This document shows positions 7,536 to 30,664 of a stretch of 64,000 bases of DNA, in pieces. The notes beneath the pieces were generated by a model that saw nothing but the letters and a program-made list of their open reading frames with translations, did no database searches and had not been told where the DNA came from. The position numbers were made by a program, and so were the translations under genes. Every line of letters starts with the position of its first letter. Position 1 is the first letter of the stretch. Origin of the DNA: Pseudolabrys sp. (GTDB lineage Bacteria; Pseudomonadota; Alphaproteobacteria; Rhizobiales; Xanthobacteraceae); NCBI GenBank assembly GCA_030684935.1, contig JAUXXH010000021.1:36974-100973 (forward strand), read 5' to 3'.

Positions 7536-7579
7536 CGATGGATCCTTGCTGATTTCGTGTCGCAGGTATGGGCGGCCGC

Positions 7580-8611: not shown

Positions 8612-8654
8612 GGCGTCGGTCCCGGTCAGGCGTTTCAGGGTCAATCGTAAAGCG

Positions 8655-9530
8655 TTATTGGCCGAAAATGTCACGGGTTTCCGCGAACATGTCGTCGACC
8701 GATATCCGTTTCGGAATGAGCTTCTGCTGGTAGGCATATTCGGCGATCAGCGCCAGGCTCGGCCGGTTGGCCTCGATGCCGAACGGGATCGGGTCCGGGC
8801 TGGCCGGCGTCCCCGCCAGCCGCTTGCCTTCCAGCAACAGCCGGTACACTTCGCGCGCCGTGTCGGGATCGGCGGCCACGTCCTGGGGCCGCATCACCAC
8901 CAGATGATTGATCGGCACCGCCTTCTGCTTGGCGTACCAGGCCGCCGCCTCGGCCTGCGGGTCGCCAAACAGCGACCGGGCGCGCGGATCGTTCGACGAT
9001 TCGCCGAGCACGGCGTCGAGTTCGCCGTCGAGCAGCATCGGCACGATTTTCCGCCCTTCGGGCGCGCGTTTGGTCGTGTCCTTGTACTCGGCCACATGCG
9101 GGTCCTCGAACGTGACCCATTCGATGCTGTCGAGATCGACGCCGTAGTCGTTGGCGAGAATGCCGCGAATCCACGCGCCCGTCGTGGTGGTGAAGGAGCG
9201 GATGCCGACACGCTTGCCGTTGAGGTCGGACGGCCGCATCGGGCCCTTGTCGGCGTTATAGATCGCGAACGGATGCTGGAACCGCCCGATCATCGCCGCC
9301 GGCAGCAGCGCCAGCGGTTTGCCATGCGCCTTGGCGATCAGATAGGTCACCACCGCCATTTCGGAGACGTCATAGCGGTCTTCACGGATCATGCCCTTGA
9401 AGCCATCCCAGACCGGAACGATCTCGGTGAAGGCGAAGCTGACGCGGTCCGACTTCACCGCGCCGGTTTTCAGCGGCGCGGTGTGCGGATAGTCCCCGAT
9501 CAACGTCTTCAGCGTCTTGGCATCGGGCAT
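8655..9530 (-). CDS. 4,5-dihydroxyphthalate decarboxylase-like protein
   Basis: YDVSEMAVVTYL, GKRVGIRSFTTTTGAWIRGIL, FGIEANRPSL; paralog of 6645-7535. Confidence 0.7.
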   Translation of the reverse strand: MPDAKTLKTLIGDYPHTAPLKTGAVKSDRVSFAFTEIVPVWDGFKGMIREDRYDVSEMAVVTYLIAKAHGKPLALLPAAMIGRFQHPFAIYNADKGPMRPSDLNGKRVGIRSFTTTTGAWIRGILANDYGVDLDSIEWVTFEDPHVAEYKDTTKRAPEGRKIVPMLLDGELDAVLGESSNDPRARSLFGDPQAEAAAWYAKQKAVPINHLVVMRPQDVAADPDTAREVYRLLLEGKRLAGTPASPDPIPFGIEANRPSLALIAEYAYQQKLIPKRISVDDMFAETRDIFGQ

Positions 9531-9539
9531 CGGTCGCCA

Positions 9540-10391
9540 TCAATCCTTCAGGCTCGGATAAAGCACCTGCGCGGTCTTGCCGAAGATCCAGTCCTGGTCG
9601 CTGGACTTGGCAAACGAGAACGCCTTCTGCGCGGCGCCGAGGATTTCCTTCAGCGTGCCGACCGAGTTGGGGAAATTGGAGCCCCAGCCGATGCGGTCGG
9701 CGCCGAAGGTATCCACCATCTTGCCGAAGAACGTGTCGGCGGCGCCCTTGCCCCAGCTCTTCGGGGTGACATTGAGCGGCGTGATCTTGAGGTAGACCTG
9801 CTTGTACTTGGCCAGCGCCAGGAAGTCGGCGGCGCCGGCATACGGCGGTCCGTCTTCATGCGGCGTCCGCGACAGGTGATCGAGAATGATGGTGACCTTC
9901 GGAAACTTGTCCATGATCCCGCGCAGCAGCGGGATGCCTTCCTGCTTCATCTGCACGCACACGGGAATGTTCTTGGCCGCCGCGTGCTCCCAGAACGGAT
10001 AGGTCTTCGGGTCGGCGAACCAGGTGGCCTGCCCCGGCAGCGTGCTGCCGGTGGTGAAAAGCCGCATCCCGGTGCAGCCGCGGCCCAGCCAGTAGTCGAA
10101 GGTCTTCACGGCGTCGGGCGCGAGCGTATCGATCGAGTAGACGCCGGTGAAGCGCGACGGCACCGCCGCCACCGCATCGGCGACGTAGCTGTTGTCGTAG
10201 CCATAGGCGGTCGACGAATGAACGATCGCCGCCTTGGCGACACCGGCGTCGTCCATGGCCTGCAGCAGGTCGTCATAGGTGGTCGGCCGTTCGCTCGACC
10301 AGGTCGACTGCGTGCCGCCCAGCGGGTCCAGCGGATAGGCCTTGGTATCGGGCGAGACGATATGCGGATGGATATCGATGATGGATGACAT
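9540..10391 (-). CDS. Amidohydrolase_2 family lactonase (LigI/COG3618-like)
   Basis: IIDIHPH, YGYDNSY, ILDHL, WGSNFP. Confidence 0.75.
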   Translation of the reverse strand: MSSIIDIHPHIVSPDTKAYPLDPLGGTQSTWSSERPTTYDDLLQAMDDAGVAKAAIVHSSTAYGYDNSYVADAVAAVPSRFTGVYSIDTLAPDAVKTFDYWLGRGCTGMRLFTTGSTLPGQATWFADPKTYPFWEHAAAKNIPVCVQMKQEGIPLLRGIMDKFPKVTIILDHLSRTPHEDGPPYAGAADFLALAKYKQVYLKITPLNVTPKSWGKGAADTFFGKMVDTFGADRIGWGSNFPNSVGTLKEILGAAQKAFSFAKSSDQDWIFGKTAQVLYPSLKD

Positions 10392-10421
10392 AAGGGGACT
10401 CTTCTTGCGGTCGGAAGGAAT

Positions 10422-11444
10422 CTACGGATCGATATCGACGAAGACCTGGTCGAGCTGCGGCCGCGCCGGGATCAGCTTCTGCTGCAGCGCATAGGTGACC
10501 AGCGCGTCGATGCTCGGACGGTTGGCGGCCATGCCGTACGGCAGCGGGTCGTTCATCAGCGAGAAGAAGCTGCGATAGCGGAGGTCTTCCGGGCTGTCGC
10601 CGCTGTCGAGCTTGAGGCTTTCCAGATAGGGCCGCTTGGCCGTGGTGAAGGCGTTCATCAAGGAGCGGGCCAGCCACGGGTGGCGATTGATATGCTCGTC
10701 CTTGACGACGATGAGCCCGTGGATCGGGTAGATGCCGGTGCGGCGGAACCAGTCGGCCTCGACCTGCTCGACGTCGGCGATCAGTTCCGGATAGGTGCCG
10801 GCGGCCACGCCGGTCGGCGCATTCATGTCCCAGTTGCCGATCGGCGGGCCGGCGCGCCCGACCCCGGCCGGACCGGTGAACCCGGCCTGGATTTCGCCGG
10901 ACGCCATCATGCTTTGCAGCGACTTGCCCTCCGGGGCATGGACGACATTCGGCGGCAGCTTCAACGAGGTGACGTGCTCCTCGTCGTCGACGACCCAGGT
11001 CACCTTCGACGAATCGAGGCCGTATTCGTTGACGAAAATGCCGCGCGTCCAGACGCCGGTCGTGACCGAGTAGGCGCGCACGCCGACTTTCTTGCCTTCG
11101 AGGTCCTTCGGCTGCCTGATATTGGCGTCGGGCCGCACGATGAATCCGCCGTGGTGGAAGCGGCGCATGATGAAGATCGGCAGGGCGATATAGGGCGCAC
11201 CGAGGGCGCGTGCGATCATGTAGGTGGTCGGCGCCATTTCGCAGATGTCGAACTCGACGTCGCGCACCATCCGCCGGAAAGCCTGGATGATCGGCTTGAC
11301 CTCGATCATGTCGGCATCGACGCCTTCAATCGGCACGCTGCCATCCTTGATGGCCGCGGTATGGCCGTAAGTGCCGATTGCGATCTTCAGCCGCGGGCGA
11401 TCGGACCCCTGCGGCACCTTTGTCGTCATTCCCTGCACGTTCAC
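10422..11444 (-). CDS. 4,5-dihydroxyphthalate decarboxylase-like protein
   Basis: FRRMVRDVEFDICEMAPTTY, RFHHG, GKKVGVRAYSVTTGVW, RTGIYPIHG, DPLPYGMAANR. Confidence 0.75.
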   Translation of the reverse strand: MNVQGMTTKVPQGSDRPRLKIAIGTYGHTAAIKDGSVPIEGVDADMIEVKPIIQAFRRMVRDVEFDICEMAPTTYMIARALGAPYIALPIFIMRRFHHGGFIVRPDANIRQPKDLEGKKVGVRAYSVTTGVWTRGIFVNEYGLDSSKVTWVVDDEEHVTSLKLPPNVVHAPEGKSLQSMMASGEIQAGFTGPAGVGRAGPPIGNWDMNAPTGVAAGTYPELIADVEQVEADWFRRTGIYPIHGLIVVKDEHINRHPWLARSLMNAFTTAKRPYLESLKLDSGDSPEDLRYRSFFSLMNDPLPYGMAANRPSIDALVTYALQQKLIPARPQLDQVFVDIDP

Positions 11445-13737: not shown

Positions 13738-14370
13738 ATGACACCGTATAGCGACATCGCCGACGAACTGCTTCGCCACGGCACATCGACCTTGTGCGAG
13801 GCCTCGCGCCTGCCCTGCGCGCTCGACTATGCGATCCGGCCGGTGTGGCCCGGCGCGGCGGTCGCAGGCCCCGCCTATCCGCTGCGCTGCGCGCCCGGCG
13901 ACAATCTCGCCATCCATATTGCCGTCGATGCGGTGCCGCCGGGCCATGTCCTGGTGGTCGATGCATCCGGCTACGTCGCCGGCTACTGGGGCGAAGTGCT
14001 CACGGTCGCGGCCGAAGCGCGCCACATCAAGGGCATCATCATCGACGGCGGCCTGCGCGATATCGATGCGCTGGAGCGCCGCAAGTTTCCCGCCTTCGCC
14101 CGCGGCATCGGCATGCGCGGCACGGTGAAATTCCATGCGCCGTCGGTCGGCGAGCCGATCGTCATGTCCGGCGTCGCCATCGCCCCGGGCGATCTTGTCG
14201 TCGGCGATACCGATGGCGTGCTCGCCATTCCGCAGGCTGCGGTGGCCCGCACACTGGAAGCGGCCCGTCTGCGCACCGACAAGGAAGCGGTCACGATGAA
14301 GCGGCTGCTGGCCGGCGAAACGACCCTGGACCTGCTGGGCCTCACGGCCCATCGGCTGCCGAAGCGCTAG
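13738..14370 (+). CDS. RraA/HMG-CHA aldolase family protein (LigK-like)
   Basis: PGDNLAIH, YWGEVL, IDGGLRD, PGDLVVGDTDG. Confidence 0.85.
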   Translation: MTPYSDIADELLRHGTSTLCEASRLPCALDYAIRPVWPGAAVAGPAYPLRCAPGDNLAIHIAVDAVPPGHVLVVDASGYVAGYWGEVLTVAAEARHIKGIIIDGGLRDIDALERRKFPAFARGIGMRGTVKFHAPSVGEPIVMSGVAIAPGDLVVGDTDGVLAIPQAAVARTLEAARLRTDKEAVTMKRLLAGETTLDLLGLTAHRLPKR

Positions 14371-14510
14371 GCGCGGTCAGGCACGGTCGACCCAACGGTG
14401 CAAATGGGCTGGGGCGCAGGCCACACCATAAGAAATGGCTATAGCTATGGTAATGCCTCTTGAACCGTGTCAGCTTTTCCGCAGCATAGGCACAACGGAA
14501 AGGCGCACCG

Positions 14511-15815
14511 ATGCTATTTGCCATGGGGGCCAACAAACCACAGACCACGGCCGTCGCAAGCTGCGCCGCAATATCGCGTAACCTGCGGCATTTCAGGGTT
14601 TTTCTGGCCGTCGCCGAACTGCGCTCGCCCACGCTTGCGGCAGAGCGCTGCCGGGTGTCGCAACCAGCCGTGACACAATCGCTGGGCAAGCTGGAGCGTG
14701 AAGCCGGCGGCGACCTGTTCGAGCGGACCCGGCAGGGCTTCTATTTGACTGAACGCGGCCGGATTTTCGAGGCGCGCCTGCGCCGCGCCATGCGCCGGCT
14801 GGATGCGGCTCTCGGTGAGATCACGCCCCAGCTTCGGGTCACGGCCACGACGGCCCAACTTCAGGCGCTGATCGCGATGAACGAGGCGCAGAACATCTCG
14901 CTGGCCTCGCGCAACCTCGGACTGGCCCAGCCGACGGTGCAACGGGCCATTACCAAGTTCGAACGCGTGGCCGCACGCCCGTTGTTTGAGCGGACTTCGT
15001 TCGGAATGGTGGCAACGCGGGCCTGCCGCAAACTCGCGCAGGCCGCGGGGCTTGCCTTTGCCGAAATCGATCAAGCCGAAGCCGAACTGGCCGAGTTGAA
15101 CGGGCATGAGACGGGCCGCGTCGTCGTCGGATCGCTGCCTCTTTCTCGCTCCGTCGTCCTGCCCGAGGCCCTCATCCGGTTCCGCGCGGCGCGTCCGACG
15201 CAGCAGGTGACGGTCATCGACGGACCCTATGGCGAGATGCTGGGAAGCCTCCGACGCGGCAGTATCGACTTCATACTCGGCGCGCTACGCGGTCCGCTAC
15301 CGATCTGTGACGTGATCCAAGAACCGCTGTTCGACGATCATCTCACCATCGTCGCCCGGCCTGGCCATCCGCTGGACGGCCGGCGCGGAATCACTTTCGA
15401 CCAGCTTGTTCGCCATGCATGGGCGGTGCCGCGCCCCGGCACACCGTCGCGTGACCAGTTCGACAGCCTGTTCCGCGACCGCGGCCTGCCCCAACCGCAT
15501 AGTATCCTCGAGGTTGGCTCGATCTTGCTGATGCGCGAATTGTTGTCCCGAAGCGATATGCTGGGTTGCATTTCTGGCCACCAAGCGGAAGCGGAAATAA
15601 GCAAAGGGCTGCTGGTCACCCTGCACACCAAAATCGACTGGCCGGCCCGCGCCATCGGGCTGACCTATCGCTCCGGCTGGGTTCCGACCCGGGCGCAGGG
15701 CGATCTGCTGGATTATGTGCGCGACGTTTCGCGCCAGGCTGCCCCGTCACGTCTGCTGCGGCAAATCGCGCGGCCAACACCAAGAATCTATACGCCGGAC
15801 GAAAATCTTATGTGA
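14511..15815 (+). CDS. LysR regulator with two HTH domains (GalR-like)
   Basis: HTH1 NLRHFRVF..SQPAVTQ and HTH2 QLQAL..AQPTVQRAI before the substrate-binding domain; start uncertain. Confidence 0.85.
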   Translation: MLFAMGANKPQTTAVASCAAISRNLRHFRVFLAVAELRSPTLAAERCRVSQPAVTQSLGKLEREAGGDLFERTRQGFYLTERGRIFEARLRRAMRRLDAALGEITPQLRVTATTAQLQALIAMNEAQNISLASRNLGLAQPTVQRAITKFERVAARPLFERTSFGMVATRACRKLAQAAGLAFAEIDQAEAELAELNGHETGRVVVGSLPLSRSVVLPEALIRFRAARPTQQVTVIDGPYGEMLGSLRRGSIDFILGALRGPLPICDVIQEPLFDDHLTIVARPGHPLDGRRGITFDQLVRHAWAVPRPGTPSRDQFDSLFRDRGLPQPHSILEVGSILLMRELLSRSDMLGCISGHQAEAEISKGLLVTLHTKIDWPARAIGLTYRSGWVPTRAQGDLLDYVRDVSRQAAPSRLLRQIARPTPRIYTPDENLM

Positions 15816-19262: not shown

Positions 19263-21575
19263 CTAGCGACCCTTCGCGGCTGCGATCGCAGACCAAATCC
19301 GTGCCGGGGTCGCAGGCATGTCGAAGTGCGTGACGCCGGCCATGCGCAGGGCATTCATTACCGCGTTCATGCAGGCCGGCAGGCTTCCGGTGGACCCGGC
19401 TTCGCCGACACCCTTGGCGCCCAGCGGGTTGTTCGGGCTTGGCACGACGTGATTGGACAGGGACAGGTGCGGGATCAGATGCGCGCGCGGCATGCAGTAG
19501 TCCATGAAGCTGCCGGTCAGCAGCTGCCCGTCGGTGGTGTCGTACTGGCAGTATTCGCCGAACACCTGTCCGGCGCCTTGGACGATGCCGCCGACGACCT
19601 GGCCATCCGCCAGCACCGGATTGATGATATTGCCGATGTCGTCGACCGCGACATAACTCACCACCGCAACTGTGCCCGTATCGGGGTCGATTTCGACCTC
19701 GACCACATGGGCTCCGCTCGGGAAGGCCTGTGAGATCGCGCGCTCGGCAATGGTGTCGAGGGGATTCGGTAACAAAGTGCAGCTCTTTTCGATGACCGCG
19801 GTCATGCTCATGGTCCGGTCGGTGCCGGCGATCGTAAACACACCGTCTGCGAACTCGATGTCGTCCGGATTGGCTTCCAGCTCGTCCGCCGCGATCTTCC
19901 TGGCCTTGTCGATGATCATATCGGAGGCGATCTTGTAGGCGCTGCCCTGCAACATCGCCGAGCGCGAACCGATCGACGGGTGGCCGATCAAATGTGGTCC
20001 GTCCGGATCGCCGGATTTCAAGGTCACCTTTTCCGCATCGATGCCAAGCCAGCGCGCCACCATCTCCGGAAAGACGGTTTCGTGGCCCTGCCCGCTCGGT
20101 CCCGCAACGTTGTGAATGATGATGGAGCCGTCCTTTTCGAACAACACGGCGACTTCATCCTTCTTCATGCCGCCGCCGCCCGACGGTTCGATGAAGACCG
20201 CACAGCCGATGCCGCGCAATTTGCCGTTCTTGCGCGACTGGCGTTGACGCCGGCCGAACCCCTTCCAGTCGGACGCCTCTTTCGCCCTGGCGATCAGGCC
20301 GGGAAAATCGGCGCTGTCGAAGCGGGCGCCGGTCAGCGTCAGATAGGGAAACTGCGCCTTCTTCAGCACGTTGCGGCGGCGCAGTTCGAATGGATCGATG
20401 CCGAGCTGGACCGCGGCCTCATCGACCAGCCGCTCGACGATATAGTTCGCCTCCGGGCGGCCGGCGCCGCGATAGGCATTGGTCGGCGCAGTGTTGGTGA
20501 TGACCTGAAGGTGACGGCCGTACATTGCCTCGACCCGATAGGCGCCGGCGCCGATTGCCTTGCCGTTAATCGAATTGGTGAGGCAGCCGGCCTGGGCCAG
20601 ATAGGCTCCTGAATCGCACAGCCATTCGGTGCGGATCGCCAGAATCTTTCCGTTCGCGTCATAGGCCAGTTCGCCCTTGAGCGAGACTGCACGGCCGTGA
20701 TTGTCGGTCAGGAAGTCTTCCGAGCGCGTCGACAGCCATTTCACCGGACGCCGCAGCTTTTTTGCCAGCAGCATCAGCGGCGGATATTCCGGGAACGGCG
20801 CGGTGCGCGCACCGAAGGCGCCACCGACATCGAGCATGCGGATGCGGATTTTCTCCTGCGGTATGCCGGACATGACGGCCAGCTCATGCCCGAAGGCCGG
20901 ACCGCCCTGATTGGGACTGTAGAAATTGTAGACGTCGGCTGCCGCGTCGTATTCGACGAGCGCGCCGCGCACCTCCATCGGCGTCGGTGCGACGCGCGGG
21001 CTTTCCGCCGTCAGCGACACGATGCCCGCGGCGCGCGCGAAGGCCTCGGCGGCCTGCTGTTCGTCGCCGTATTCGAAATCGAAACAGACATTGCCGGGAA
21101 TATTGTCGTGGATGGCGAAGGCGCCGGCGGCCATGGCCCGTTCCGGTCCGATCAGGACCGGCAGGTCTTCGTAGTCGATGTCGATCAGTTCGGCGGCATC
21201 GCGGGCCTGCGCGGCGGTTTCCGCGACGACGACCGCGACTTCTTCGCCGGCGAAACGGACGCGATCATGCGCCAGGACCGGACGCTGCGGCGCCAGAACG
21301 CCCTGCCCGCCGCGGCCGGGCGGCGGCGGAATCGGCGGGAGGGTGGCGAAGCCGGCATCGGCGACGTCTCGCCCGGTCAGAACCGCGAGGACGCCGGGGC
21401 TGCTTGCAGCCGCCGTGGTGTCGATCGACTTGATAATGGCGTGCGCCCGGTCGGACCGGCGGAAACTGGCGTGGACCTGGCCCGGCAGATTCCAGTCATT
21501 GGTATAACGGCCCTCGCCGGTGATGAAGCGGCGGTCCTCGCGGCGTCCGGAAAACTTGAAATATGTATCTGACAT
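19263..21575 (-). CDS. Xanthine dehydrogenase family molybdopterin-binding subunit (form II CoxL-like)
   Basis: RREDRRFITGEGRY, VGGAFG, AYRGAGRPEA, GQGHET, NPLGAKGVGE. Confidence 0.9.
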   Translation of the reverse strand: MSDTYFKFSGRREDRRFITGEGRYTNDWNLPGQVHASFRRSDRAHAIIKSIDTTAAASSPGVLAVLTGRDVADAGFATLPPIPPPPGRGGQGVLAPQRPVLAHDRVRFAGEEVAVVVAETAAQARDAAELIDIDYEDLPVLIGPERAMAAGAFAIHDNIPGNVCFDFEYGDEQQAAEAFARAAGIVSLTAESPRVAPTPMEVRGALVEYDAAADVYNFYSPNQGGPAFGHELAVMSGIPQEKIRIRMLDVGGAFGARTAPFPEYPPLMLLAKKLRRPVKWLSTRSEDFLTDNHGRAVSLKGELAYDANGKILAIRTEWLCDSGAYLAQAGCLTNSINGKAIGAGAYRVEAMYGRHLQVITNTAPTNAYRGAGRPEANYIVERLVDEAAVQLGIDPFELRRRNVLKKAQFPYLTLTGARFDSADFPGLIARAKEASDWKGFGRRQRQSRKNGKLRGIGCAVFIEPSGGGGMKKDEVAVLFEKDGSIIIHNVAGPSGQGHETVFPEMVARWLGIDAEKVTLKSGDPDGPHLIGHPSIGSRSAMLQGSAYKIASDMIIDKARKIAADELEANPDDIEFADGVFTIAGTDRTMSMTAVIEKSCTLLPNPLDTIAERAISQAFPSGAHVVEVEIDPDTGTVAVVSYVAVDDIGNIINPVLADGQVVGGIVQGAGQVFGEYCQYDTTDGQLLTGSFMDYCMPRAHLIPHLSLSNHVVPSPNNPLGAKGVGEAGSTGSLPACMNAVMNALRMAGVTHFDMPATPARIWSAIAAAKGR

Positions 21576-21656
21576 TTTTTCTCGTGATCTGGGATCGGCA
21601 CGGCGCATCGTCTGAACGCGTCCGCAGGGAAGGCCTCGGCGCTGGGGAGGATGCCG

Positions 21657-22415
21657 CTAACGCAGTTCGATCTCCATCGAGATCGAGTCGCCCCGGTAAA
21701 CGCCGTGGCCGGCATAGAGGACGACGCCGTTCTTGTCGATTGCAATGCGGTCGACCTTGGCCACCGGTGCATTCAACGGGATCTTCAGCAACGCGGCGAT
21801 ATCGACATCGGCAGTGCCGATGGTCAATGTCTGCCATGCCTTGGCAATACTGGCGCCGGCTATTTTGTGCAGAATCGGCAGGGTCGGCAAACGGCGAAAC
21901 TGGAGCGGCGGACCCTTCTTGAACAATTCGTAATCGAGATAAAACCGGCCGACGAGATAAGGCTGGCCCTGCCGCAAATGCAACCGCCGCATCATCTGGT
22001 ATTTGGCCGCAGGCTTGCCTTTGTCGCGATCGACGTGCGGCAGGTCGGTGACGACGCGTTGTTCGAGAACTTCGATGGTGGCGCCTTCGTGCGCCGAGAT
22101 CAAAGACTTCCAGTCGATCGCCAGCTTGTGCGCATGCTCGCTGGTGGGCGACTTGCGGATGAAGGTGCCCTTGGCGCGCAGCCGCTCCAGCAGCCCCTCG
22201 TCCTCGAGCAGTCCGAGCGCCTCGCGCATCGTCCCGCGCGCCACGGAAAATTCGGCGGCAAGTTCATCCACGTTGGGGATGCGGCTGCCGACCGGCCACT
22301 CCCCCGTGGCAATTCGGGTCCGGAACAGCGTCGCCAGCTGGATGTACCGGGAGACCGGGCTGCGATCGAAGCCCGAGGCCGAAATCACCCGCAGCGCGCT
22401 TTTGTTGGTTTTCAT
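21657..22415 (-). CDS. GntR family regulator (HutC/UTRA subfamily)
   Basis: LAAEFSVARGTMREAL..LERLRAKGTF plus UTRA-like C-terminus. Confidence 0.88.
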   Translation of the reverse strand: MKTNKSALRVISASGFDRSPVSRYIQLATLFRTRIATGEWPVGSRIPNVDELAAEFSVARGTMREALGLLEDEGLLERLRAKGTFIRKSPTSEHAHKLAIDWKSLISAHEGATIEVLEQRVVTDLPHVDRDKGKPAAKYQMMRRLHLRQGQPYLVGRFYLDYELFKKGPPLQFRRLPTLPILHKIAGASIAKAWQTLTIGTADVDIAALLKIPLNAPVAKVDRIAIDKNGVVLYAGHGVYRGDSISMEIELR

Positions 22416-22551
22416 CGAGAATTGCCGTTCATTTCGAGGCAGCGAAGGTCCCGCCGTTGGCGCATTATGCACCAATCCGGCGAATAGCAAGCAAGCGTGA
22501 GACACAGGGTCGCGTGAGCCCATTGTAGGACGCCCGCCCCTTTCAATCAAT

Positions 22552-22565
22552 AGTATGGACTTTTG
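22552..22565 (+). promoter_or_regulatory. Candidate GntR operator AGTATGGACTTTTG
   Basis: Exact 14-bp copy on the minus strand at 26513-26526; both copies lie upstream of module genes. Confidence 0.6.
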
Positions 22566-22603
22566 TCGGCCGGACCTTTACGGGTATGGCCGACGGAGAA
22601 TTC

Positions 22604-23593
22604 ATGAGCCTTTTGCCGATCACCATTGCGACCTGGGATTACGACCGGGTCCGCCCGCTTATCGATGGCCGCGTCCGGGTCGAGGGCTGCGACGTCAATT
22701 ACATCACCATGCCGGTCGAGGAATGCTTCGAGCGCGCCTATTTTCACGGTGAATTCGAGGTCGCCGAGATCGGCTTCAGTCCGTTCCTGATCGCGCTGTC
22801 ACGCGGTCCGACGCCGTATCTCGCGGTGCCGGCGTTCCTGTCGCGGATGTTCCGCCATTCCGCGGTCTATATCCGCACCGACCGCGGCATCGAGGGGCCG
22901 GCCGATCTCCGTGGTAAGCGCATCGGCGTGCCCGAATATCAGATGTCGGCGGTGATGTGGTTTCGCGGCTATCTGCAGGACGAGTTCGGCATCGCCGCCA
23001 GGGACATCAACTGGGTCCAGGCCGGGCTGGAAAATCCCGGGCGGCGTGACAAGTTCCCGCTGAACCTGCCCGACGGCTTTCCCCTGACCTCGATGAACGA
23101 TGCTTCGCTGTCGGCCATGCTGGCCGAAGGCAAGCTCGATGGCGTCATCTCGGCGCGGCGGCCATCGTGCTTCGTCAACAAGCATCCGCAGGTCCAACGA
23201 CTGTTCCCGGACTATCGCGCCACCGAACGCGACTACTTCCAGCGCACCGGCATTTTCCCCATCATGCATGCGCTCGGCATCCGGCGCGACATCTATGAGA
23301 AAAACCGCTGGCTAGCAGCCAGCCTCTACAAGGCATTCCTCCAGGCCAAGCGCATCGCCGACGCCGATCTGGCGGAGACGACGGCGCTGAAGGTCGGCCT
23401 GCCCTGGGTCACCGCCGAATATGAGGCGACCACCGCTCTGATGGGCGAGGATTTCTGGTCCTACGGCGTGGACGCCAACCGCAGAACGCTCGCCACCATG
23501 GCGCGCTATTCCTATGAGCAAGGCCTCTCCGTCCGGCTGCTGAGCGTCGAGGAAATGTTCGCCGACGGAAACTTGAGCGAAACAAGAGTCTAG
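22604..23593 (+). CDS. 4,5-dihydroxyphthalate decarboxylase family protein (Pht5/OphC-like)
   Basis: DYDRVRPLIDGRV, FLSRMFRHSAVYI, GVPEYQMSA, TGIFPIMH, MGEDFWSYG; RBS GGAG. Confidence 0.8.
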   Translation: MSLLPITIATWDYDRVRPLIDGRVRVEGCDVNYITMPVEECFERAYFHGEFEVAEIGFSPFLIALSRGPTPYLAVPAFLSRMFRHSAVYIRTDRGIEGPADLRGKRIGVPEYQMSAVMWFRGYLQDEFGIAARDINWVQAGLENPGRRDKFPLNLPDGFPLTSMNDASLSAMLAEGKLDGVISARRPSCFVNKHPQVQRLFPDYRATERDYFQRTGIFPIMHALGIRRDIYEKNRWLAASLYKAFLQAKRIADADLAETTALKVGLPWVTAEYEATTALMGEDFWSYGVDANRRTLATMARYSYEQGLSVRLLSVEEMFADGNLSETRV

Positions 23594-23616
23594 AGCCACC
23601 GCTGAGGGAGAACACC

Positions 23617-24558
23617 ATGGCCGTTCAACTGATTTGCTGCTCGCACAGTCCGCTGATGCTGGCCGACGTCGAGGAGAGCGAGACCGGTGTGCACGCGCAG
23701 TTCTTTCGCGAACTCGATCAGTGCGCCACGGCGCTCCACAAGTTCAATCCCGATCTGGTCGTCGTTTTCGCCCCTGACCACTTCAACGGCTTCTTCTACG
23801 AGATGATGCCGATGTTCTGCATCGGCACGGCCGCCCAGGGCACCAAGGACTGGCATCTCGAAGCGGGCCCGTTGCGCGTGCCGCGCCAGACCGCGATCGA
23901 TTGCGTCCGTCACCTTCATTCACGCGACATCGACGTCGCGCTGTCGCATGAGATGAAGGTCGATCACGGCACGACGATCCCGCTGTACAAGCTGACCGGC
24001 GCGCTGGCGCGCTACAACGTGCTGCCGATCTTCATCAACTGCGCCGCCGATCCGCGGCCCTCGTTCAAGCGCGTGCGTACCTTCGGCGCCGCGGTCGGCG
24101 AGTTCCTGGCGAAGAAAGACATGCGCATCACCATCATCGGCTCCGGCGGCCTGTCGCACGATCCGCCGACGCCGCGCCTCGAAATGAGCCCGCCCGACGT
24201 CGCCAAGCGCCTGATCCAAAGCGCCGTCCCGACGCAGGCCGAACTCGACGCCCGCGAGGCCCGCGTCATCCGGGCCGCGCGCGACCTCGTCGTCGGCAAG
24301 GGTCCGTGCCTGCCGCCGGACCAGCAGTGGGATCACGATTTCCTGAACACCTTCGTCGCCGGCCGGTTCGAGGAGTTCGACACCATGACCGACGCCGAGA
24401 TCGACCGCGTGGCCGGCTTCGGCGCCCACGAGGTCCGCACATGGGTTGCCGCCGCCGAGGCGGCCAAGGCCATCGGCACGCTGCAGACCGAGCTGCGCTA
24501 CTACCATCTGGTGCCGGAATGGATCACCGGCATGGGCATCGTGACGGGCCAGGCCTGA
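23617..24558 (+). CDS. mhpB: Class III extradiol dioxygenase, MhpB-like
   Basis: SHSPL, FAPDHFNGFFY, VDHG, GSGGLSHDPPTP, HEVRTWVAA. Confidence 0.8.
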   Translation: MAVQLICCSHSPLMLADVEESETGVHAQFFRELDQCATALHKFNPDLVVVFAPDHFNGFFYEMMPMFCIGTAAQGTKDWHLEAGPLRVPRQTAIDCVRHLHSRDIDVALSHEMKVDHGTTIPLYKLTGALARYNVLPIFINCAADPRPSFKRVRTFGAAVGEFLAKKDMRITIIGSGGLSHDPPTPRLEMSPPDVAKRLIQSAVPTQAELDAREARVIRAARDLVVGKGPCLPPDQQWDHDFLNTFVAGRFEEFDTMTDAEIDRVAGFGAHEVRTWVAAAEAAKAIGTLQTELRYYHLVPEWITGMGIVTGQA

Positions 24559-24583
24559 GGCAGTTTTCAAAAGTCGGATCGAT

Positions 24584-25435
24584 ATGATGGCAGACACGCA
24601 AGCGGTGACCGGGCGCGTCGTGTCCGGCGACGTCGACATCTTTTACCGGAAATTCGGCAAGCCCGGCCGCACGCCGGTGCTGATCGTGCACGGCCTGTCG
24701 TTTTTTTCCTATGACTGGATCGGCGTGGCGGCCCGCCTGGCGGCCGATCGCGAGGTCGCCGCCATCGACATGCGCGGCTTCGGCCAGTCGGGCTGGAGCC
24801 CGGGACGCGACTACAAGCTGGAAACCCTGAGCAAGGACGTCATCGCCGTTCTCGACGCCCTCGGCTGGGACAAGGCCGTGCTCATGGGGCATTCGTTCGG
24901 CGGCCGGGTGTGCCTGGCGACCGCCGGCTGGAACAGAGAGCGCGCCAGCGCCCTCGTCTGCGTCGACTTCGCGCCCGATCTGGCGCCGCAGGGCCGGCGC
25001 CATGTCGCCGAACGGATCGGCCGCCAGCCCGATGTCTTCGCATCGGTCGACGACGCGATGGCCTATCACGGCGAAACCGCTGGCGACGCGCCGCGCCGGC
25101 AGCGCTGGCAGGAGTTTCTCAGGAAGGAGAATCGCGGCTTCGTGCTGCGCCGCGACCTGCATTACCGCGACAATTTCAAACGCGCGCTGGAGGCCGGACA
25201 GTCGGCGCCGGTACCGGCCTTCCTGTGGCCGATGCTGGCGGACATGACAATTCCGGCGCTGCTCATTCGCGCGACGGAATCGGACATGTTCGACGCGGCG
25301 ACGCTGCAAAAGGCGCTGGCGCTGAACCCGCGGCTGAAAGGTATCGAATTGCCCGGCAGCCACGACCTGGCCGGCGACAATCCCGAAGGACTGGCCGACG
25401 CGGTCACGCGCTTCCTCGCCACGGTGAAACTCTAG
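24584..25435 (+). CDS. Alpha/beta hydrolase
   Basis: VHG, DMRGFGQS, GHSFGG, C-terminal His (GSHDL). Confidence 0.85.
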   Translation: MMADTQAVTGRVVSGDVDIFYRKFGKPGRTPVLIVHGLSFFSYDWIGVAARLAADREVAAIDMRGFGQSGWSPGRDYKLETLSKDVIAVLDALGWDKAVLMGHSFGGRVCLATAGWNRERASALVCVDFAPDLAPQGRRHVAERIGRQPDVFASVDDAMAYHGETAGDAPRRQRWQEFLRKENRGFVLRRDLHYRDNFKRALEAGQSAPVPAFLWPMLADMTIPALLIRATESDMFDAATLQKALALNPRLKGIELPGSHDLAGDNPEGLADAVTRFLATVKL

Positions 25436-25498
25436 CCCACGACCGGCTGCCGCGTCCGGCGACGCCGAAGCGCCGTCGAACGCGGTGTTTTCCCGCGG

Positions 25499-26458
25499 CT
25501 ATTGCTCGATCTTGACGCCGACCTTCTTGATCAGCGCTTCCATCCGGCTCGATTCCGAATCGATGAGGGTCTTGAACTCGGCGATGGTCTTGTCTTGCGG
25601 CTCGACGAAGAGCTTCTGCATCTTCTCGCGGTACTCCGGCAGCTGCGAGATCGCCTTGGCCTCGGCGTTGAGCTTGTCGACGATGGCCTGCGGCGTGCCG
25701 GCCGGCGCCAGCAGCCCGAACCAGCCGACGAAGGTCAGATCGTCGTAACCCAGCTCCCGCATGGTCGGCACGTCCGGCAACGCCGCCACGCGCTTGGGAC
25801 CCGTGACCACCAGCGCCTTCAGCTTCTTGGACGCGAGCAGCCCGACAACCGGCGGCACGCCGCACACGACGATGTCGACGCGGCCACCCATCACGTCCTG
25901 GAAGGCGGTCGGGAAGGCGCGGTACGGCACATGCGTGAAGTTGAGGTTTTCGCGATCGCGCACCAGTTCGCCCAGCAGGTGCAGATTGGTGCCGACGCCG
26001 GGGGACGCGAAGGTGAATGTCCGGCCTTTCCTGGACGCGTCGACCAGTTCCTTCAGCGAATTGATGCCAAGCTCCGGACTGACGACAAGCGCATTGTCGA
26101 TGGTGCCGAGCAGCGCAACCGGCGTCAGCGCCTTGTTGGGATCGAAATTGCGCTTGGTATAGAGATGGCCCAGGACGGCGTTGGTGTCCTTGGAACCGAG
26201 CAGCAGCGTATAGCCGTCCGGCTTCTGCGCGGCGGCGTATTCCGTGCCGAGCAGACCGCCCGCCCCCAGCTTGTTTTCGATCACCACCGGCTGCTTGACG
26301 CGCTGCGTCAGTGCATCGGCAAACTGCCGGGCGATGAAGTCCGGCGCCGTGCCCGCGGCGTAAGGGACGACAAGTGTTATCGTTCGCGACGGATAGGATT
26401 CCTGGGCGTTCGCAACGGCAACGAACCCGAGCAGAGCGACGAGAATAATCCGGATCAA
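25499..26458 (-). CDS. Bug/TctC substrate-binding protein
   Basis: YPSRTITLVVPYAAG, ENKLGAGG, PDGYTLL; TTG start after AGGGAGG. Confidence 0.9.
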   Translation of the reverse strand: MIRIILVALLGFVAVANAQESYPSRTITLVVPYAAGTAPDFIARQFADALTQRVKQPVVIENKLGAGGLLGTEYAAAQKPDGYTLLLGSKDTNAVLGHLYTKRNFDPNKALTPVALLGTIDNALVVSPELGINSLKELVDASRKGRTFTFASPGVGTNLHLLGELVRDRENLNFTHVPYRAFPTAFQDVMGGRVDIVVCGVPPVVGLLASKKLKALVVTGPKRVAALPDVPTMRELGYDDLTFVGWFGLLAPAGTPQAIVDKLNAEAKAISQLPEYREKMQKLFVEPQDKTIAEFKTLIDSESSRMEALIKKVGVKIEQ

Positions 26459-26512
26459 GGCGACCTCCCTAATTTTTTCACCAGCTTTGGCGCAATTCTT
26501 CACAAGCAGAGC

Positions 26513-26612
26513 CAAAAGTCCATACTTATATCTTTTGATGGCGTCATACCCGTTGTGCCCGCGCCGGTTTTCCGTGTCCGGCGGCTTCCCAAATATCACC
26601 TATAAGTATAGA
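26513..26612. promoter_or_regulatory. Divergent Bug/YeiH promoter region with two related operator-like sites
   Basis: Minus-strand TATAAGTATGGACTTTTG (26513-26530) and plus-strand TATAAGTATAGA (26601-26612). Confidence 0.55.
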
Positions 26613-26729
26613 TGATTAGATGTTCGCAGGGACATTGCCGGCCCGCGGCGCGTGCGTGCCGACCCGATACGGTTTAATAGACGCCCTTCCCCAGGCCCGG
26701 CCCCGCGCCCCGGCAATCAGGACATTCGC

Positions 26730-27773
26730 GTGACCGCCGATTCAAAAATGCCACCGTCTTCCGCGGCGGCCTATGTTCCGGGCCTTGCTCTGTCGGCCCT
26801 TGTGGCCGGCATCGGCTACCTCACCGCCCCTCTTATGGCGCCCGTGCTGCCGCTGCCCAGCATGGTCATCGCGCTCATCGTCGGCATGGCGCTCAATCCG
26901 CTGGCCTCCCGCCCCGCCGTGCAGCCGGGCATGGCCTTCTGCGTTCGCACGGTGTTGCGCTGGGCCGTCGCGTTGTTGGGCCTGCGCATCGCCCTCGCCG
27001 ACATCGCCGCGCTGGGGCCGGAAATTGCGGCGCTGCTGGTGATCGCCATGGCGGTGACCTTGTGGTCGGGATTCGCATTCGCGCGCTGGAGCGGCCAGAA
27101 CGCCGGCTTCGGCGCCCTGGTCGGCGCCGGAACGGCGGTCTGCGGCGCATCGGCGACGCTGGCGGTGTCCACCGTGGTGCCGAATTATCCCGGCAAACAG
27201 GCTGACATTGCCTTTGTCGTGGTCTCGGTCAACGCGCTCGCCACCCTGGCGATGCTGTCCTACCCGCCGCTGTGCTTTCTGCTGGGCTTCGATCCGCAAA
27301 CGACCGGCGCCATGCTGGGCGGCACCATTCATGACGTGGCACAGGTCGTCGGCGCCGGTTACGCCGTGTCGGAGGACACCGGCAATGCCGCGGTGATCGT
27401 CAAATTGTTCCGGGTGTTCCTGTTGCTGCCGGTGGTGCTGAGCGTCGGATGGTATTTCACCCGAATCGGCGAACCGACAGGGTCCGCACGGGTGCCGGTG
27501 CCGGTATTCGCGATCGTTTTTCTGCTGCTGTGTGTCCTGAACAGCATCATGCCCTGGATGCCGGCATTGATGCCGGTTTATGCCCCCGTCAAAAGCGTTC
27601 TGGTCGAAGCATCGACCTGGGGTCTCCTGCTGGCGATCGGCGCGCTCGGTCTCGGCACTTCACTCAGGACCATCATCAACCTCGGCTGGCGGCATGTCTC
27701 GACCGTGTTCGCATCGACCGTTGTCATCTTTGTGATCGTCACGGGCGGGCTGTACGTGTTGCAGCCGTTGTGA
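26730..27773 (+). CDS. YeiH/UPF0324 putative sulfate exporter
   Basis: Polytopic membrane protein with GTAVCGASA, GGTIHDVAQVV, VKLFRV. Confidence 0.88.
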   Translation: MTADSKMPPSSAAAYVPGLALSALVAGIGYLTAPLMAPVLPLPSMVIALIVGMALNPLASRPAVQPGMAFCVRTVLRWAVALLGLRIALADIAALGPEIAALLVIAMAVTLWSGFAFARWSGQNAGFGALVGAGTAVCGASATLAVSTVVPNYPGKQADIAFVVVSVNALATLAMLSYPPLCFLLGFDPQTTGAMLGGTIHDVAQVVGAGYAVSEDTGNAAVIVKLFRVFLLLPVVLSVGWYFTRIGEPTGSARVPVPVFAIVFLLLCVLNSIMPWMPALMPVYAPVKSVLVEASTWGLLLAIGALGLGTSLRTIINLGWRHVSTVFASTVVIFVIVTGGLYVLQPL

Positions 27774-28054: not shown

Positions 28055-29065
28055 TTAATTGATTTCGATTTTTGCCCTGGATACGATTTTCGCACTGTCT
28101 TCCACATCCTTGCGGAAGTACTCGGCAAACTGTTCCAGCGTCATCGGCGTCGACGTCAGGCTGAGTGTCGCCAAACGTTGTTTGACCGTTTCATCCTGCA
28201 TCGCTTTTTGTGCCGCGGCATGGAGCCTTCCGACAATGTCCGCCGGCGTATTGGCAGGCGCGAAGAACCCGAGCCAGAGCTCAAAGCCATCTTCCTTCAG
28301 GCCCGCCTCCTTAAGCGTCGGAACGTCCGGCAACTCTTTTGCGCGCGCTGTTGTACTCACGGCCAGCGCGGTGAGCTTGCCTTCTTTGATCAAAGCCAGG
28401 GCACTGCCGAGGGCCGTGAAATAGAAATCCAGACGGCCCGTCATGGTCTCCGTCAGAGCATCGGGCGGGCCCCGGAAGGCAATATTCTGCGCCTCAATGC
28501 CCGCGGCCAGACGGAAGCGCTCGGCGGCAATGTGTGGCGCGCTTCCCACGCCAAGCGAGGCGTAGTTCATCTTCCCCGAACTTGTCTTCGCCGCTGCAAT
28601 CAGATCGCCCAGCGTCCGGTATCCCTTAGACGGCGCCGTCACGAGGACATAGGGCTGCGCGCCGAACGAAGCGATTGGCGTGAAGTCCTTGAGCGTGTCG
28701 TAGGTCCGGTTCTTCGATACGGAATGCACGATGGAAAACGTCGAAGACTGCAGGAGCAGCGTGTAGCCATCCGGCGCTGCCCGCGCTGCCGCCGCGGAAC
28801 CCGTGGCGCTACCCGCCCCGGCCCGGTGCTCGATGACGATCGCCTGTCCCAGATCCTGCGACATTTTCTCGAACACCGGCCGCGCCGCCGCTTCGAGCGA
28901 CGTCCCGGGACCGAACGGAGATATCGCCGTGATCGGCTTGGTGGGCCATTGTTGCGCCAGCGCAGAGCTGCCGGCGGCCACGACAAACATCGTTGATACA
29001 CAGGCCACGACATTCCAGCCGCGGCGTGCTCTCCTGCTGACCGCTAAATTTCTTCCTTCAAGCAT
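28055..29065 (-). CDS. Bug/TctC substrate-binding protein
   Basis: WPTKPITAISPFGPG, AAPDGYTLL; RBS GGAGGA. Confidence 0.9.
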   Translation of the reverse strand: MLEGRNLAVSRRARRGWNVVACVSTMFVVAAGSSALAQQWPTKPITAISPFGPGTSLEAAARPVFEKMSQDLGQAIVIEHRAGAGSATGSAAAARAAPDGYTLLLQSSTFSIVHSVSKNRTYDTLKDFTPIASFGAQPYVLVTAPSKGYRTLGDLIAAAKTSSGKMNYASLGVGSAPHIAAERFRLAAGIEAQNIAFRGPPDALTETMTGRLDFYFTALGSALALIKEGKLTALAVSTTARAKELPDVPTLKEAGLKEDGFELWLGFFAPANTPADIVGRLHAAAQKAMQDETVKQRLATLSLTSTPMTLEQFAEYFRKDVEDSAKIVSRAKIEIN

Positions 29066-29143
29066 TTCATCCTCCCGGTTTCATTTTTTTAGTCTGAAAC
29101 GAAGCGCAGCCTGAAACTGAACGGCCTTTCCGGCGCGACCGCC

Positions 29144-30052
29144 CTAGTCGACAAGCGGCGCGGTGCTGAAGCTCAACATGTCTTGAATCCGCTTCCACCG
29201 TTGCGAATGCGGCGGCGTGATTCCCCACTGGTCCATTCGTCCCGCGGGCCACTTCCAGTACTCGGGACCATGCGGCACATACGAGTCATCGACCTGCATT
29301 ACGTCCGACGTGTATTCGAGCGGTATCTCTTCCGGCCCGGCAAAGTATGCGAAAACGTTGTCGCCGGCGACGTGCCGCCCTGGACCCCATTCGATCGGAT
29401 AGCCCGCATCACGCATTCTTCCTGCGCCGCGCATGACCGCATGCAGATCGGGCAGCTCGAACGCGATGTGATTGATCGTCGGCTTGGCGGCGCCACAGAC
29501 AACGACGGAATTGTGGTCTGTGTTCGCGCAATGGAGAAACGAAAGCGGCCCGGATTGATCGATCAAACTGAATCCGAGATTGTCGATGAGAAACGCATTC
29601 GTGCCGTTCACGTCAACCGCGTTCAGGTTCACATGAGCGATCTTGCGCGGACGATCTGCCACGTCAGCGTCGTCTGCGTGATCGGCGACCTCGCAGACGA
29701 TGCCGAAGCGGCGCCCTTCCTGATCCACAAAGTCGAAGCCGTAGCCGCCGCCGGGACCCTTCGATTCGGCTAGCCGTGTGCACTGATGACCGCGCCCGGC
29801 AATCGCACTGTGAAACGCACGGACGGAATCCCGGTCGCTTGCGTCAAAAACAACGCGCCGCACCGCGGCACCCCCGCTGGCGGCGTGGAGCGCGAGGATA
29901 TGGTGGTATCGTCCCGTACCGCGAAAATACGCAGCGCTGCTGCCGGCTTCGACTTCGGAGAGGCGCCAAACCTCGGTGAAGAATTTTCTGGCCGCGCCCA
30001 GATTGGGCACTTCCAGTTCAATGCTGCGTAAGCCTCTGACACGATTGCTCAT
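29144..30052 (-). CDS. VOC family extradiol dioxygenase-like protein
   Basis: Two VOC domains; IAHVNL, INHIAF, WGPGRH..DNVFAYF..LEY (His/His/Glu metal triad). Confidence 0.82.
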   Translation of the reverse strand: MSNRVRGLRSIELEVPNLGAARKFFTEVWRLSEVEAGSSAAYFRGTGRYHHILALHAASGGAAVRRVVFDASDRDSVRAFHSAIAGRGHQCTRLAESKGPGGGYGFDFVDQEGRRFGIVCEVADHADDADVADRPRKIAHVNLNAVDVNGTNAFLIDNLGFSLIDQSGPLSFLHCANTDHNSVVVCGAAKPTINHIAFELPDLHAVMRGAGRMRDAGYPIEWGPGRHVAGDNVFAYFAGPEEIPLEYTSDVMQVDDSYVPHGPEYWKWPAGRMDQWGITPPHSQRWKRIQDMLSFSTAPLVD

Positions 30053-30109
30053 CGATCACCGCCTGAAAAAGCCGAGAGGTCTATCGCCGAGTTTCATTGC
30101 CGAACCGCA

Positions 30110-30664
30110 CTAAGGGGTCCAGCCCTGCCCCCAGGCGTCCGGCGCCGCTGCATCGATGAGGATGAAAGCCACGCGGCAGACCTTGTCGCCGTTATTGACC
30201 CAGGCATGGTTGGTTCCCTGCTGAACCAGGGTGTCGCCGGCTTTCATGCGGATTTCGGTATCGTCCAGAAGCATGTCGATCTCGCCCTCGAGAACGATGG
30301 CGTAATCGATGCTCTTGGTTCGATGCGTGTTGGTGTGACGCATGTATCCCTGCGTCGCGGGGTCAATACCCATGGCCTTCAGAATCTTGTCGTGGTCGAC
30401 ATGACCTTCGGCAGGCTTTGCGGGCGGGAAATCGACGATCCGGAAGATGGTCCCGTTGGCTGGCGGAGGAACCCCGATGGCCCGGTCGCCGCGGTCCGTC
30501 GCAGCGTTCATGTCGATCGGCTGCTCGTCGGTGACCCACAGCATGGAGACCGCGTTGCCGCCCGGGCTCCGTTGCTTCGGTTGCGCCGCGCCGTCAAAAA
30601 GAACGACCGCCTTGCCCTGCGGGTCGTGCCCGGTCACGACGCGCCGTGTCTGCTTGAATTCCAT
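30110..30664 (-). CDS. Cupin domain protein
   Basis: RRVVTGHD, HRTKSIDYAIVLEGEI, VQQGTNHAWVN. Confidence 0.85.
   Translation of the reverse strand: MEFKQTRRVVTGHDPQGKAVVLFDGAAQPKQRSPGGNAVSMLWVTDEQPIDMNAATDRGDRAIGVPPPANGTIFRIVDFPPAKPAEGHVDHDKILKAMGIDPATQGYMRHTNTHRTKSIDYAIVLEGEIDMLLDDTEIRMKAGDTLVQQGTNHAWVNNGDKVCRVAFILIDAAAPDAWGQGWTP

Follow-up and report, generated by a model that had tools for sequence, protein, structure and literature searches.

Which aromatic compound is degraded by a GntR-linked gene cluster of a Pseudolabrys species, and does the gene for a YeiH-family membrane protein beside it mean that the substrate carries sulfur? We addressed this question for positions 19,263 to 27,773 of a 64,000-nucleotide stretch of contig JAUXXH010000021.1 (the window). 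An earlier note on this DNA had proposed one regulon for import, group removal, ring cleavage and export of a sulfur oxyanion, acting on a sulfonated aromatic. What is new here is the pairing, in a predicted and conserved GntR-linked regulon of aromatic catabolism, of a decarboxylase of the PhtC (4,5-dihydroxyphthalate decarboxylase) family with an MhpB-type dioxygenase. We put the probability that the substrates of this module are sulfur-free phenolic aldehydes and acids of plant origin at about 0.5.

Related loci were collected by a dioxygenase-based scan of the genome collection, which gave 270 relatives; the best 80 loci were kept, and 70 of these form a close clade, nearly all titled Alphaproteobacteria or Xanthobacteraceae. 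The ten distant loci (38-42%) are excluded from all counts out of 70. Genes in the related loci were called with a codon-scored gene caller. Genus-wide counts refer to 150 other genomes of the genus, in which kin are not independent. The assembly of the window's genome comprises 3.67 Mb and is 89.6% complete. The gene identities given by the earlier note hold in family and structure-database searches.

Operator-like sites and the putative GntR regulon

The regulator gene (21657..22415, minus strand; 252 residues, start set from relatives) encodes a GntR protein with a UTRA domain in the HutC-type architecture (PF00392 and PF07702), and is divergent from an operon for the decarboxylase, the dioxygenase and a hydrolase. 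The spacer between them contains the 14-mer AGTATGGACTTTTG at 22552..22565 on the plus strand, 39 nucleotides ahead of the decarboxylase ATG (22604), with the core AAGT/TAGT-ATGG-ACTT. As stated earlier, the exact 14-mer recurs before the gene for a Bug-type solute receptor, at 26513..26526 on the minus strand and 55 nucleotides ahead of the likely TTG start (26458). No further copy exists in the 3.67 Mb genome, whether exact or with one mismatch.

When the two spacers were base-shuffled, a shared word of at least 14 letters appeared in 5 of 5000 shuffles. Among the real spacer pairs in the window 1 of 253 shares a 15-mer, hence the exact repeat alone is not decisive and we tested its conservation. 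An intergenic search with the pattern AGTAT[AG]GACT, allowing one mismatch, gave a match in 30 of 30 loci with a GntR orthologue (the window and 29 of the 70 related loci) versus 6 of 41 loci without one. The operator precedes the decarboxylase or the dioxygenase in the relatives, and stands upstream of Bug in at least 9 of the 14 loci with a Bug orthologue. A matrix was further built from 19 distinct sites of relatives, the lowest training score being 24.2 bits. In the genome scan with this matrix the operon site and the Bug site ranked first and second (34.1 and 32.9 bits), and the next-best site scored 19.9 bits. The proposed likeness to HutC-type operators, whose consensus is GTnTAnAC, was also confirmed, as GTATGGAC fits with one mismatch; a variant, GTATAGAC, occurs in L042. 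Taken together, conservation and matrix ranks support well that the decarboxylase-MhpB-hydrolase operon and the Bug gene belong to one putative GntR regulon. A second partial word, TGTGAA or TATGGAA, is repeatedly found in relatives some 21 bases downstream of the operator on the Bug side, and is possibly a second half-site.

The regulon as first proposed also included yeiH, on account of a related site before this gene. The letters are present (TATAAGTATAGA, 26601..26612, plus strand), but the right half (ACTTT) is missing, and the site scores 11.4 bits, under all 19 training sites, which places it 13th among the 28 sites of the genome that exceed 9 bits. A motif search upstream of close yeiH orthologues found no site among those listed. 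We therefore consider that this half-match is probably not a site of the GntR regulator, and with yeiH adjoining the cluster in one of the 70 loci and no co-occurrence in the genus (see below), the gene is left outside the regulon. The weak site continues as AGATGATTAG (26601-26620), and the same ten letters follow a full operator in L020 near position 6088; it may be a decayed copy of such a promoter, and chance is also possible.

The decarboxylase and its nearest relatives

The first gene of the operon (22604..23593, plus strand) encodes a PhtC-family protein of 329 residues, with PhtC/OphC of Comamonas testosteroni KF-1 (9jp7) as nearest solved relative (phmmer E 5e-88). The AlphaFold model, made from 134 input sequences, has a predicted local distance difference test score (pLDDT) of 96 and matches 9jp7 with a TM score of 0.97, Z 45.5 and a root mean square deviation (rmsd) of 1.3 over 327 residues at 42% structural identity. 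Residues E55, R81, R84, H85, P219 and H222 hardly vary across the family and are common with 9jp7, and the enzyme has both the PhtC fold and the conserved cleft residues of that structure. It is like PhtC/OphC in fold and in most of its sequence, but belongs to a separate clade (support 100), apart from two enzymes of phthalate loci and with W11, G57, P60 and S115 as clade-specific residues.

According to excerpts of PMC13040137, PhtC converts 4,5-dihydroxyphthalate to protocatechuate and also decarboxylates 4-hydroxyphthalate. From the latter activity we infer that the enzyme takes off the carboxyl group para to the hydroxyl. The family comprises 3742 clusters at 50% identity (E up to 1e-10), and it has thousands of members outside phthalate degraders and one known reaction. 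To this the present clade brings a conserved partner, an operator and informative neighbours.

It was suggested earlier that the PBP-like fold also includes the desulfinase DszB and that the 'decarboxylase' may act on a sulfinated or sulfonated ring. The first statement is right, in that both proteins have the periplasmic-binding-protein fold (2de2: Z 12.5, rmsd 5.0 over 268 residues, 14% identity). A DszB-like desulfinase, or a hydrolytic desulfonase, could further draw on C29 and C189, which are clade-specific and invariant in the 25 aligned clade members; DszB has its catalytic cysteine at the Cys27 position, and the first-strand motif ATWDYDR of the present enzyme contains no cysteine. However, DszB ranks 45th among the 50 structure matches listed, where entries of SsuA, MqnA/MqnD type and Thi5 score higher, as against Z 45.5 for PhtC, and all family-invariant residues are common with PhtC. 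We regard a desulfinase or desulfonase function as highly improbable.

The window's genome holds at least six PhtC-family members. Three paralogues with 24-29% identity to the one studied lie at 6645-11429 of the window (minus strand), where they alternate with two genes that by eye are amidohydrolase-like. Another (47%) belongs to a block at G000:C10:100745-109829, together with a thiamine diphosphate (ThDP) enzyme (51% to the cluster-linked one) and an ABC transporter whose binding protein is SsuA-like. This block immediately follows soxY/soxZ/cytochrome c/flavoprotein-like genes, the sox labels being assigned by eye. This C10 paralogue is displayed in the 'pht' group of the decarboxylase tree, which does not establish a phthalate role for it.

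Ring cleavage and accompanying genes

The second gene of the operon (23617..24558, plus strand; 313 residues) encodes an MhpB-type extradiol dioxygenase of the LigB family. It reaches 337.4 bits with NF009910 (cut-off 291) and scores under the cut-offs of three sister models. It is 40% identical to Escherichia coli MhpB, and its H10, H55, H117, H181, E272 and R213 align with H10, H53, H115, H179, E271 and R212 of that enzyme, in which a His-His-Glu set binds iron and two further histidines are catalytic.

The third gene (24584..25435, plus strand; 283 residues) encodes an esterase/amidase-like alpha/beta hydrolase (Pfam Abhydrolase; best PDB matches 3bwx, 3kxp and YbfF), and has orthologues in 44 of the 70 related loci. 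An MhpC/BphD orthologue was ruled out: the identity to E. coli MhpC is 24%, the motifs are HGLSFF and GHSFGG instead of HGSGPG and GNSMGG, and the HsaD model gives 30.6 bits against a cut-off of 400.

The order of an MhpB-type dioxygenase gene and an alpha/beta hydrolase gene recalls the mhp operon of E. coli, and genes like MhpD, MhpE and MhpF occur in L051 and MhpD in L259. On the other hand, the cluster lacks the MhpA hydroxylase, has a decarboxylase before the dioxygenase, can dispense with the hydrolase and is linked to GntR where mhp is under IclR control; a DmpH-like gene is found in betaproteobacterial loci. No mhpA-mhpC context was seen around the dioxygenase in the related loci.

Two further genes flank the operon and its regulator. 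The left end of the studied region, not mentioned in the earlier note, is filled by a gene (19263..21575, minus strand; 770 residues) for the large subunit of a molybdenum hydroxylase of the CoxL/xanthine dehydrogenase family, with Pfam MoCoBD_1/2 and NCBIfam matches under cut-off. Its best PDB matches are CoxL and QorL, and no medium or small subunit gene adjoins it. Orthologues occur in 17 of the 70 loci; in L042 and L044 the gene lies downstream of hydroxycinnamoyl-CoA hydratase/lyase (Ech) and CoA-transferase genes on the same strand, and we regard the product as a putative aryl-aldehyde oxidase. Convergent with the operon is the gene for the Bug/TctC receptor (25499..26458, minus strand; PF03401), of 319 residues from the TTG start, which was set from the sequence and from the length of the orthologue in L018. 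Bug orthologues are present in 14 of the 70 loci.

Genes travelling with the core

The decarboxylase gene is found in 67 of the 70 loci around the close MhpB relatives, and the cluster in 18 of the 150 genus genomes. The fullest version of the cluster, L259, comes from G647, which belongs to the family of G217, and is one co-oriented run with decarboxylase (70%), MhpB (61%), hydrolase (55%) and GntR (58%). The same run holds an aldehyde dehydrogenase, Ech, a CoA-transferase III, a tannase/feruloyl esterase, MhpD and a DmpH-like gene. Its Ech scores 373 bits with NF006588 (cut-off 276) and its tannase 396 bits with PF07519, and MhpD passes NF008461. Ech also adjoins the cluster in 4 of the 70 loci (L018, L042, L044 and L058), three of which have the CoA-transferase, so that CoA-transferase III is present in four of the five Ech loci. 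All five Ech proteins pass NF006588, with HCHL as best structure matches. In the genus, three of the four Ech-bearing genomes carry the cluster. An orthologue of the aldehyde dehydrogenase (73%) lies between Bug and the decarboxylase in L037, and a benzoylformate-decarboxylase-like ThDP enzyme, another possible aldehyde source, is encoded in 16 of the 70 loci. Judged from such gene content, the companions of the core suggest plant hydroxycinnamates and aryl aldehydes as substrates.

A different layout is seen in L051, where MhpB and hydrolase genes are joined to those of a Rieske oxygenase, MhpD, a DmpH-like protein, MhpF and MhpE. This run has no semialdehyde or dihydrodiol dehydrogenase gene, and no decarboxylase gene was found in the L051 genome. 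Oxalocrotonate-branch genes without a dehydrogenase fit 2-hydroxymuconate as the product.

The same neighbours bear on two other classes of substrate. A dihydroxy aromatic dicarboxylate, e.g. dihydroxyphthalate or 4,5-dihydroxyisophthalate from 5-carboxy lignin units, could yield a catechol with a carboxylate or acidic side chain that is cleaved like 2,3-dihydroxyphenylpropionate. PhtC itself takes dicarboxylates, the dioxygenase passes the cut-off for 3-carboxyethylcatechol dioxygenase and keeps R213, Bug receptors usually bind carboxylates, and the Ech link fits 5-carboxy-hydroxycinnamates. Against this, phthalate 4,5-dioxygenase and dihydrodiol dehydrogenase genes, present in the two phthalate loci, are not among the recurrent neighbours of the 70 loci, where the clade is instead accompanied by the MhpB-type dioxygenase and aldehyde-forming genes. 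The clade also stands apart from the two phthalate-locus enzymes, differing at the four residues named above, and the hydrolase is not MhpC. We consider a dicarboxylate possible, though unlikely.

With an N-heterocyclic or aminophenolic acid as substrate (of quinoline carboxylate, kynurenate or xanthurenate type), hydroxylation of the ring would fall to the CoxL-like protein and opening of an amide or lactam to the hydrolase, while the decarboxylase and MhpB would finish the carbocycle. QorL among the top matches of the CoxL-like protein agrees with this, as does the resemblance of the hydrolase to 3kxp, an amidohydrolase of a vitamin B6 pathway. The flavoprotein-ferredoxin pair described below lies beside 3-hydroxyanthranilate 3,4-dioxygenase in 11 of 80 metagenome loci, and the 8-hydroxycoumarin route of quinoline ends in 2,3-dihydroxyphenylpropionate. 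Yet the Ech, tannase and aldehyde dehydrogenase genes of L259 and of four other loci suggest phenylpropanoids without nitrogen, the gene for an NAD-linked aldehyde dehydrogenase occupies a position comparable to that of the CoxL-like gene, and the alphaproteobacterial core has no Rieske oxygenase. An N-heterocycle therefore seems very unlikely to us.

A proposed route for plant phenolics

From the genes, the motif, its conservation and the fold we infer a route for plant phenolics in which Bug would bind the aromatic for import, the CoxL-like protein would oxidise an aldehyde to a 4-hydroxybenzoate-type acid, and the PhtC-family enzyme would remove the carboxyl group para to the hydroxyl. The MhpB-type enzyme would then open a 3-substituted catechol next to the substituent, while the hydrolase may release 2-hydroxymuconate from an ester product, or an acid from an ester upstream. 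Overall, hydroxycinnamate would be converted by way of an aryl aldehyde and the acid into a catechol with a heteroatom as its 3-substituent, and this into 2-hydroxymuconate; the window would encode the lower part only. Given the plant context, a hydroxyl or methoxyl substituent fits. Our best guess is gallate or 3-O-methylgallate, which would give pyrogallol or 3-methoxycatechol; protocatechuate itself agrees with the scheme as well. Catechol dioxygenases are known to open pyrogallol to 2-hydroxymuconate.

The known hydroxycinnamate funnels employ feruloyl esterase, CoA activation, Ech/HCHL and vanillin dehydrogenase, and Ech of the five loci above, CoA-transferase III of four of them and the tannase of L259 are the common elements. 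These funnels end at protocatechuate or gallate dioxygenases, whereas the module studied here seems to decarboxylate the acid before cleavage. If gallate or 3-O-methylgallate is indeed decarboxylated, a widespread group of soil bacteria would have a new way to process tannin and syringyl-lignin units, and the enzyme might offer a cofactor-independent decarboxylase for lignin valorisation.

Several observations weigh against this proposal. Both known PhtC substrates bear a second, ortho carboxyl group, and gallate is without it. In the window's genome, 89.6% complete, the best matches to Ech, CoA-transferase, tannase, MhpD and DmpH reach 29-35% and none is close, hence the upstream link rests on five loci elsewhere. 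The aldehyde dehydrogenase passes no family cut-off and resembles semialdehyde dehydrogenases too, and no O-demethylase was seen among the recurrent neighbours. R213, conserved in the dioxygenase, may favour an anionic substituent over methoxy. No hydrolase gene lies in 26 of the 70 loci, with a close copy in 1 of 25 such genomes searched, and the flavoprotein-ferredoxin pair of the relatives has no role in the phenolic scheme. It should also be noted that two pairs among the 70 loci share one genome, and that kin are not independent.

The YeiH gene

Head to head with the Bug gene lies the gene for a YeiH/PF03601 membrane protein (26730..27773, plus strand), which scores 202.7 bits with PF03601 (cut-off 24.5) and 109 bits, under the cut-off of 233, with TIGR00698. 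The earlier statement that the YeiH family accompanies organosulfonate catabolism agrees with our data: in 13 of 19 sampled contexts the orthologues end an IclR-xsc-sauS-SucCD-like run, in which xsc and sauS pass their cut-offs. The window protein has 79% identity with the copy that accompanies xsc in L143, and in a quick tree, the source also of the other YeiH phylogeny given here, it is the sister of the xsc-linked clade with a support of 99. A sulfur-oxyanion role fits the family, and excerpts of PMC12880088 report that sulfite resistance in Salmonella depends on YeiH. The window's genome, at its given completeness, showed no xsc and no sauS-linked SucCD-like pair.

The suggested co-occurrence of YeiH with the operon across genomes failed to appear. 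YeiH adjoins the cluster in 1 of the 70 related loci. Among the 150 genus genomes 58 have a close YeiH, namely 5 of 18 with the cluster versus 53 of 132 without it (odds ratio 0.57, p 0.44), while the odds ratio for YeiH and xsc is 3.4 (p 0.0006). In xsc-negative genomes the counts are 2 of 8 with and 22 of 81 without the cluster. Close YeiH was found in 14 of the 50 cluster genomes searched (of 68), adjoining the cluster in one. Family and xsc context together with one locus in 70 thus make YeiH a credible sulfite exporter by homology, but not a regular cluster member. Its presence probably does not signal a sulfonated substrate; we take it for a probable bystander, and likely a relocated or left-over gene of a sulfoacetate operon, from which it differs in standing head to head with Bug.

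The xsc-sauS operon of the genus (L143:5960-12426 and L144-L159) includes a SucCD-like ADP-forming ligase pair with 42% and 35% identity to the housekeeping SucCD, a possible aerobic sulfoacetate-CoA ligase.

The flavoprotein-ferredoxin pair and the sulfonated alternative

Many relatives carry a very conserved pair of an SdhA-superfamily flavoprotein (28 of 70 loci) and an 82-residue 2x[4Fe-4S]-type ferredoxin (29 of 70), as in L036:13346-15319. The pair is found in 11 of 18 genus genomes with the cluster versus 2 of 132 without it, and in 31 of the 50 cluster genomes searched. The flavoprotein (model pLDDT 71) lacks the dicarboxylate-site motifs of SdhA and scores equally with SdhA, AprA and 3'-phosphoadenosine 5'-phosphosulfate (PAPS) reductase; it gives 187 bits with PRK08275 (cut-off 587) and 131 bits with the AprA model (cut-off 557). 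AsfAB is described as a reductase/ferredoxin pair in excerpts of PMC4267179 and PMC2864759. The pair of the relatives is similar in kind to AsfAB/AprAB, at 24-27% identity and equidistant from SdhA, AprA and PAPS reductase. In 80 metagenome loci centred on the flavoprotein (L161-L240) it converges on a sauS operon in four and also occurs beside a DHDPS-like gene, and among 37 of at least 8 kb it lies near the MhpB clade in 10. This clade of the SdhA/AprA superfamily is worth study in its own right.

These findings, together with YeiH, bear on a ring-sulfonated phenolic as substrate. The PhtC-family enzyme would give 3-sulfocatechol, MhpB-type cleavage would free sulfite and 2-hydroxymuconate, and YeiH would export the sulfite; in other lineages the sulfur group may be the target of an AprAB/AsfAB-like flavoprotein-ferredoxin pair. 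The reaction from 3-sulfocatechol to 2-hydroxymuconate and sulfite is known from the meta pathway of Alcaligenes sp. O-1 (abs/scm; PMC5977463), and likewise cleaves a 3-substituted catechol. The window differs from this pathway by its decarboxylase and by its lack of a Rieske oxygenase. The Rieske and oxalocrotonate-branch layout of L051 presumably resembles the scm layout.

Sulfur would also make the hydrolase dispensable, as observed. YeiH stands beside the cluster in two layouts, that of the window and that of L026 (co-oriented behind Bug and an SsuA-like protein), with copies that are not sisters, and xsc was found in neither genome. ABC genes of the SsuA family often lie near the cluster. 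Sulfite-handling genes occur in 5 of the 70 loci against about 1.8 expected, a count that uses queries from the same loci, three unrelated gene types and one background genome. Sulfite reductase genes of the cysJI type adjoin the cluster at L044:12379-15882, and a YeiE-like regulator with a SoeABC-like three-gene molybdopterin oxidoreductase operon (Soe by domain set) lies at L256:2114-7585, about 4-5 kb from the L051 operon. The flavoprotein, finally, lacks the SdhA motifs and meets sauS operons as described.

Set against this are the single YeiH locus, the odds ratios given above and the weak third operator site. Binding proteins of the SsuA type also carry non-sulfur ligands. The phenylpropanoid genes of L259 come with no YeiH or flavoprotein in the 30 kb examined. 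The flavoprotein is 24-26% identical to the likely AsfA of Cupriavidus metallidurans CH34, and no copy of it turned up in searches of the window's genome, of G125 and of the closed genome G135. A sulfonated phenolic appears quite unlikely to us, and the sulfonated-aromatic pathway with YeiH proposed earlier is for the most part not borne out. The broader version, a Xanthobacteraceae pathway with decarboxylation, sulfite-expelling cleavage, YeiH recruited twice and an AprAB-like pair in most lineages, is about as doubtful as the N-heterocyclic proposal.

Wider searches and neighbouring genes

A plasmid search gave remote nearest matches (decarboxylase 49%, dioxygenase 46%, hydrolase 34%, flavoprotein 28%). 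In a family-wide search around G217, 3 of 301 genomes had the hydrolase and 2 of 401 the dioxygenase; the hydrolase matches of L253 and L254 have an unrelated setting beside a maleylacetate-reductase-like gene (label by eye). A literature search, with most subscription journals outside its coverage, returned no paper on the cluster, on the active site of 9jp7 or on a PhtC-family gallate decarboxylase.

Elsewhere in the window, a separate Bug gene, a VOC-family dioxygenase-like gene (99 bits with the HpaD model, under cut-off) and a cupin gene lie at 28055-30664 (minus strand), divergent from a TetR gene; they do not form a unit in the related loci. At 13738-15815 (plus strand) a LigK-like aldolase (166 bits, cut-off 179) is encoded together with a 434-residue LysR protein, in which the model matched two stretches, so that the DNA-binding domain may be doubled.

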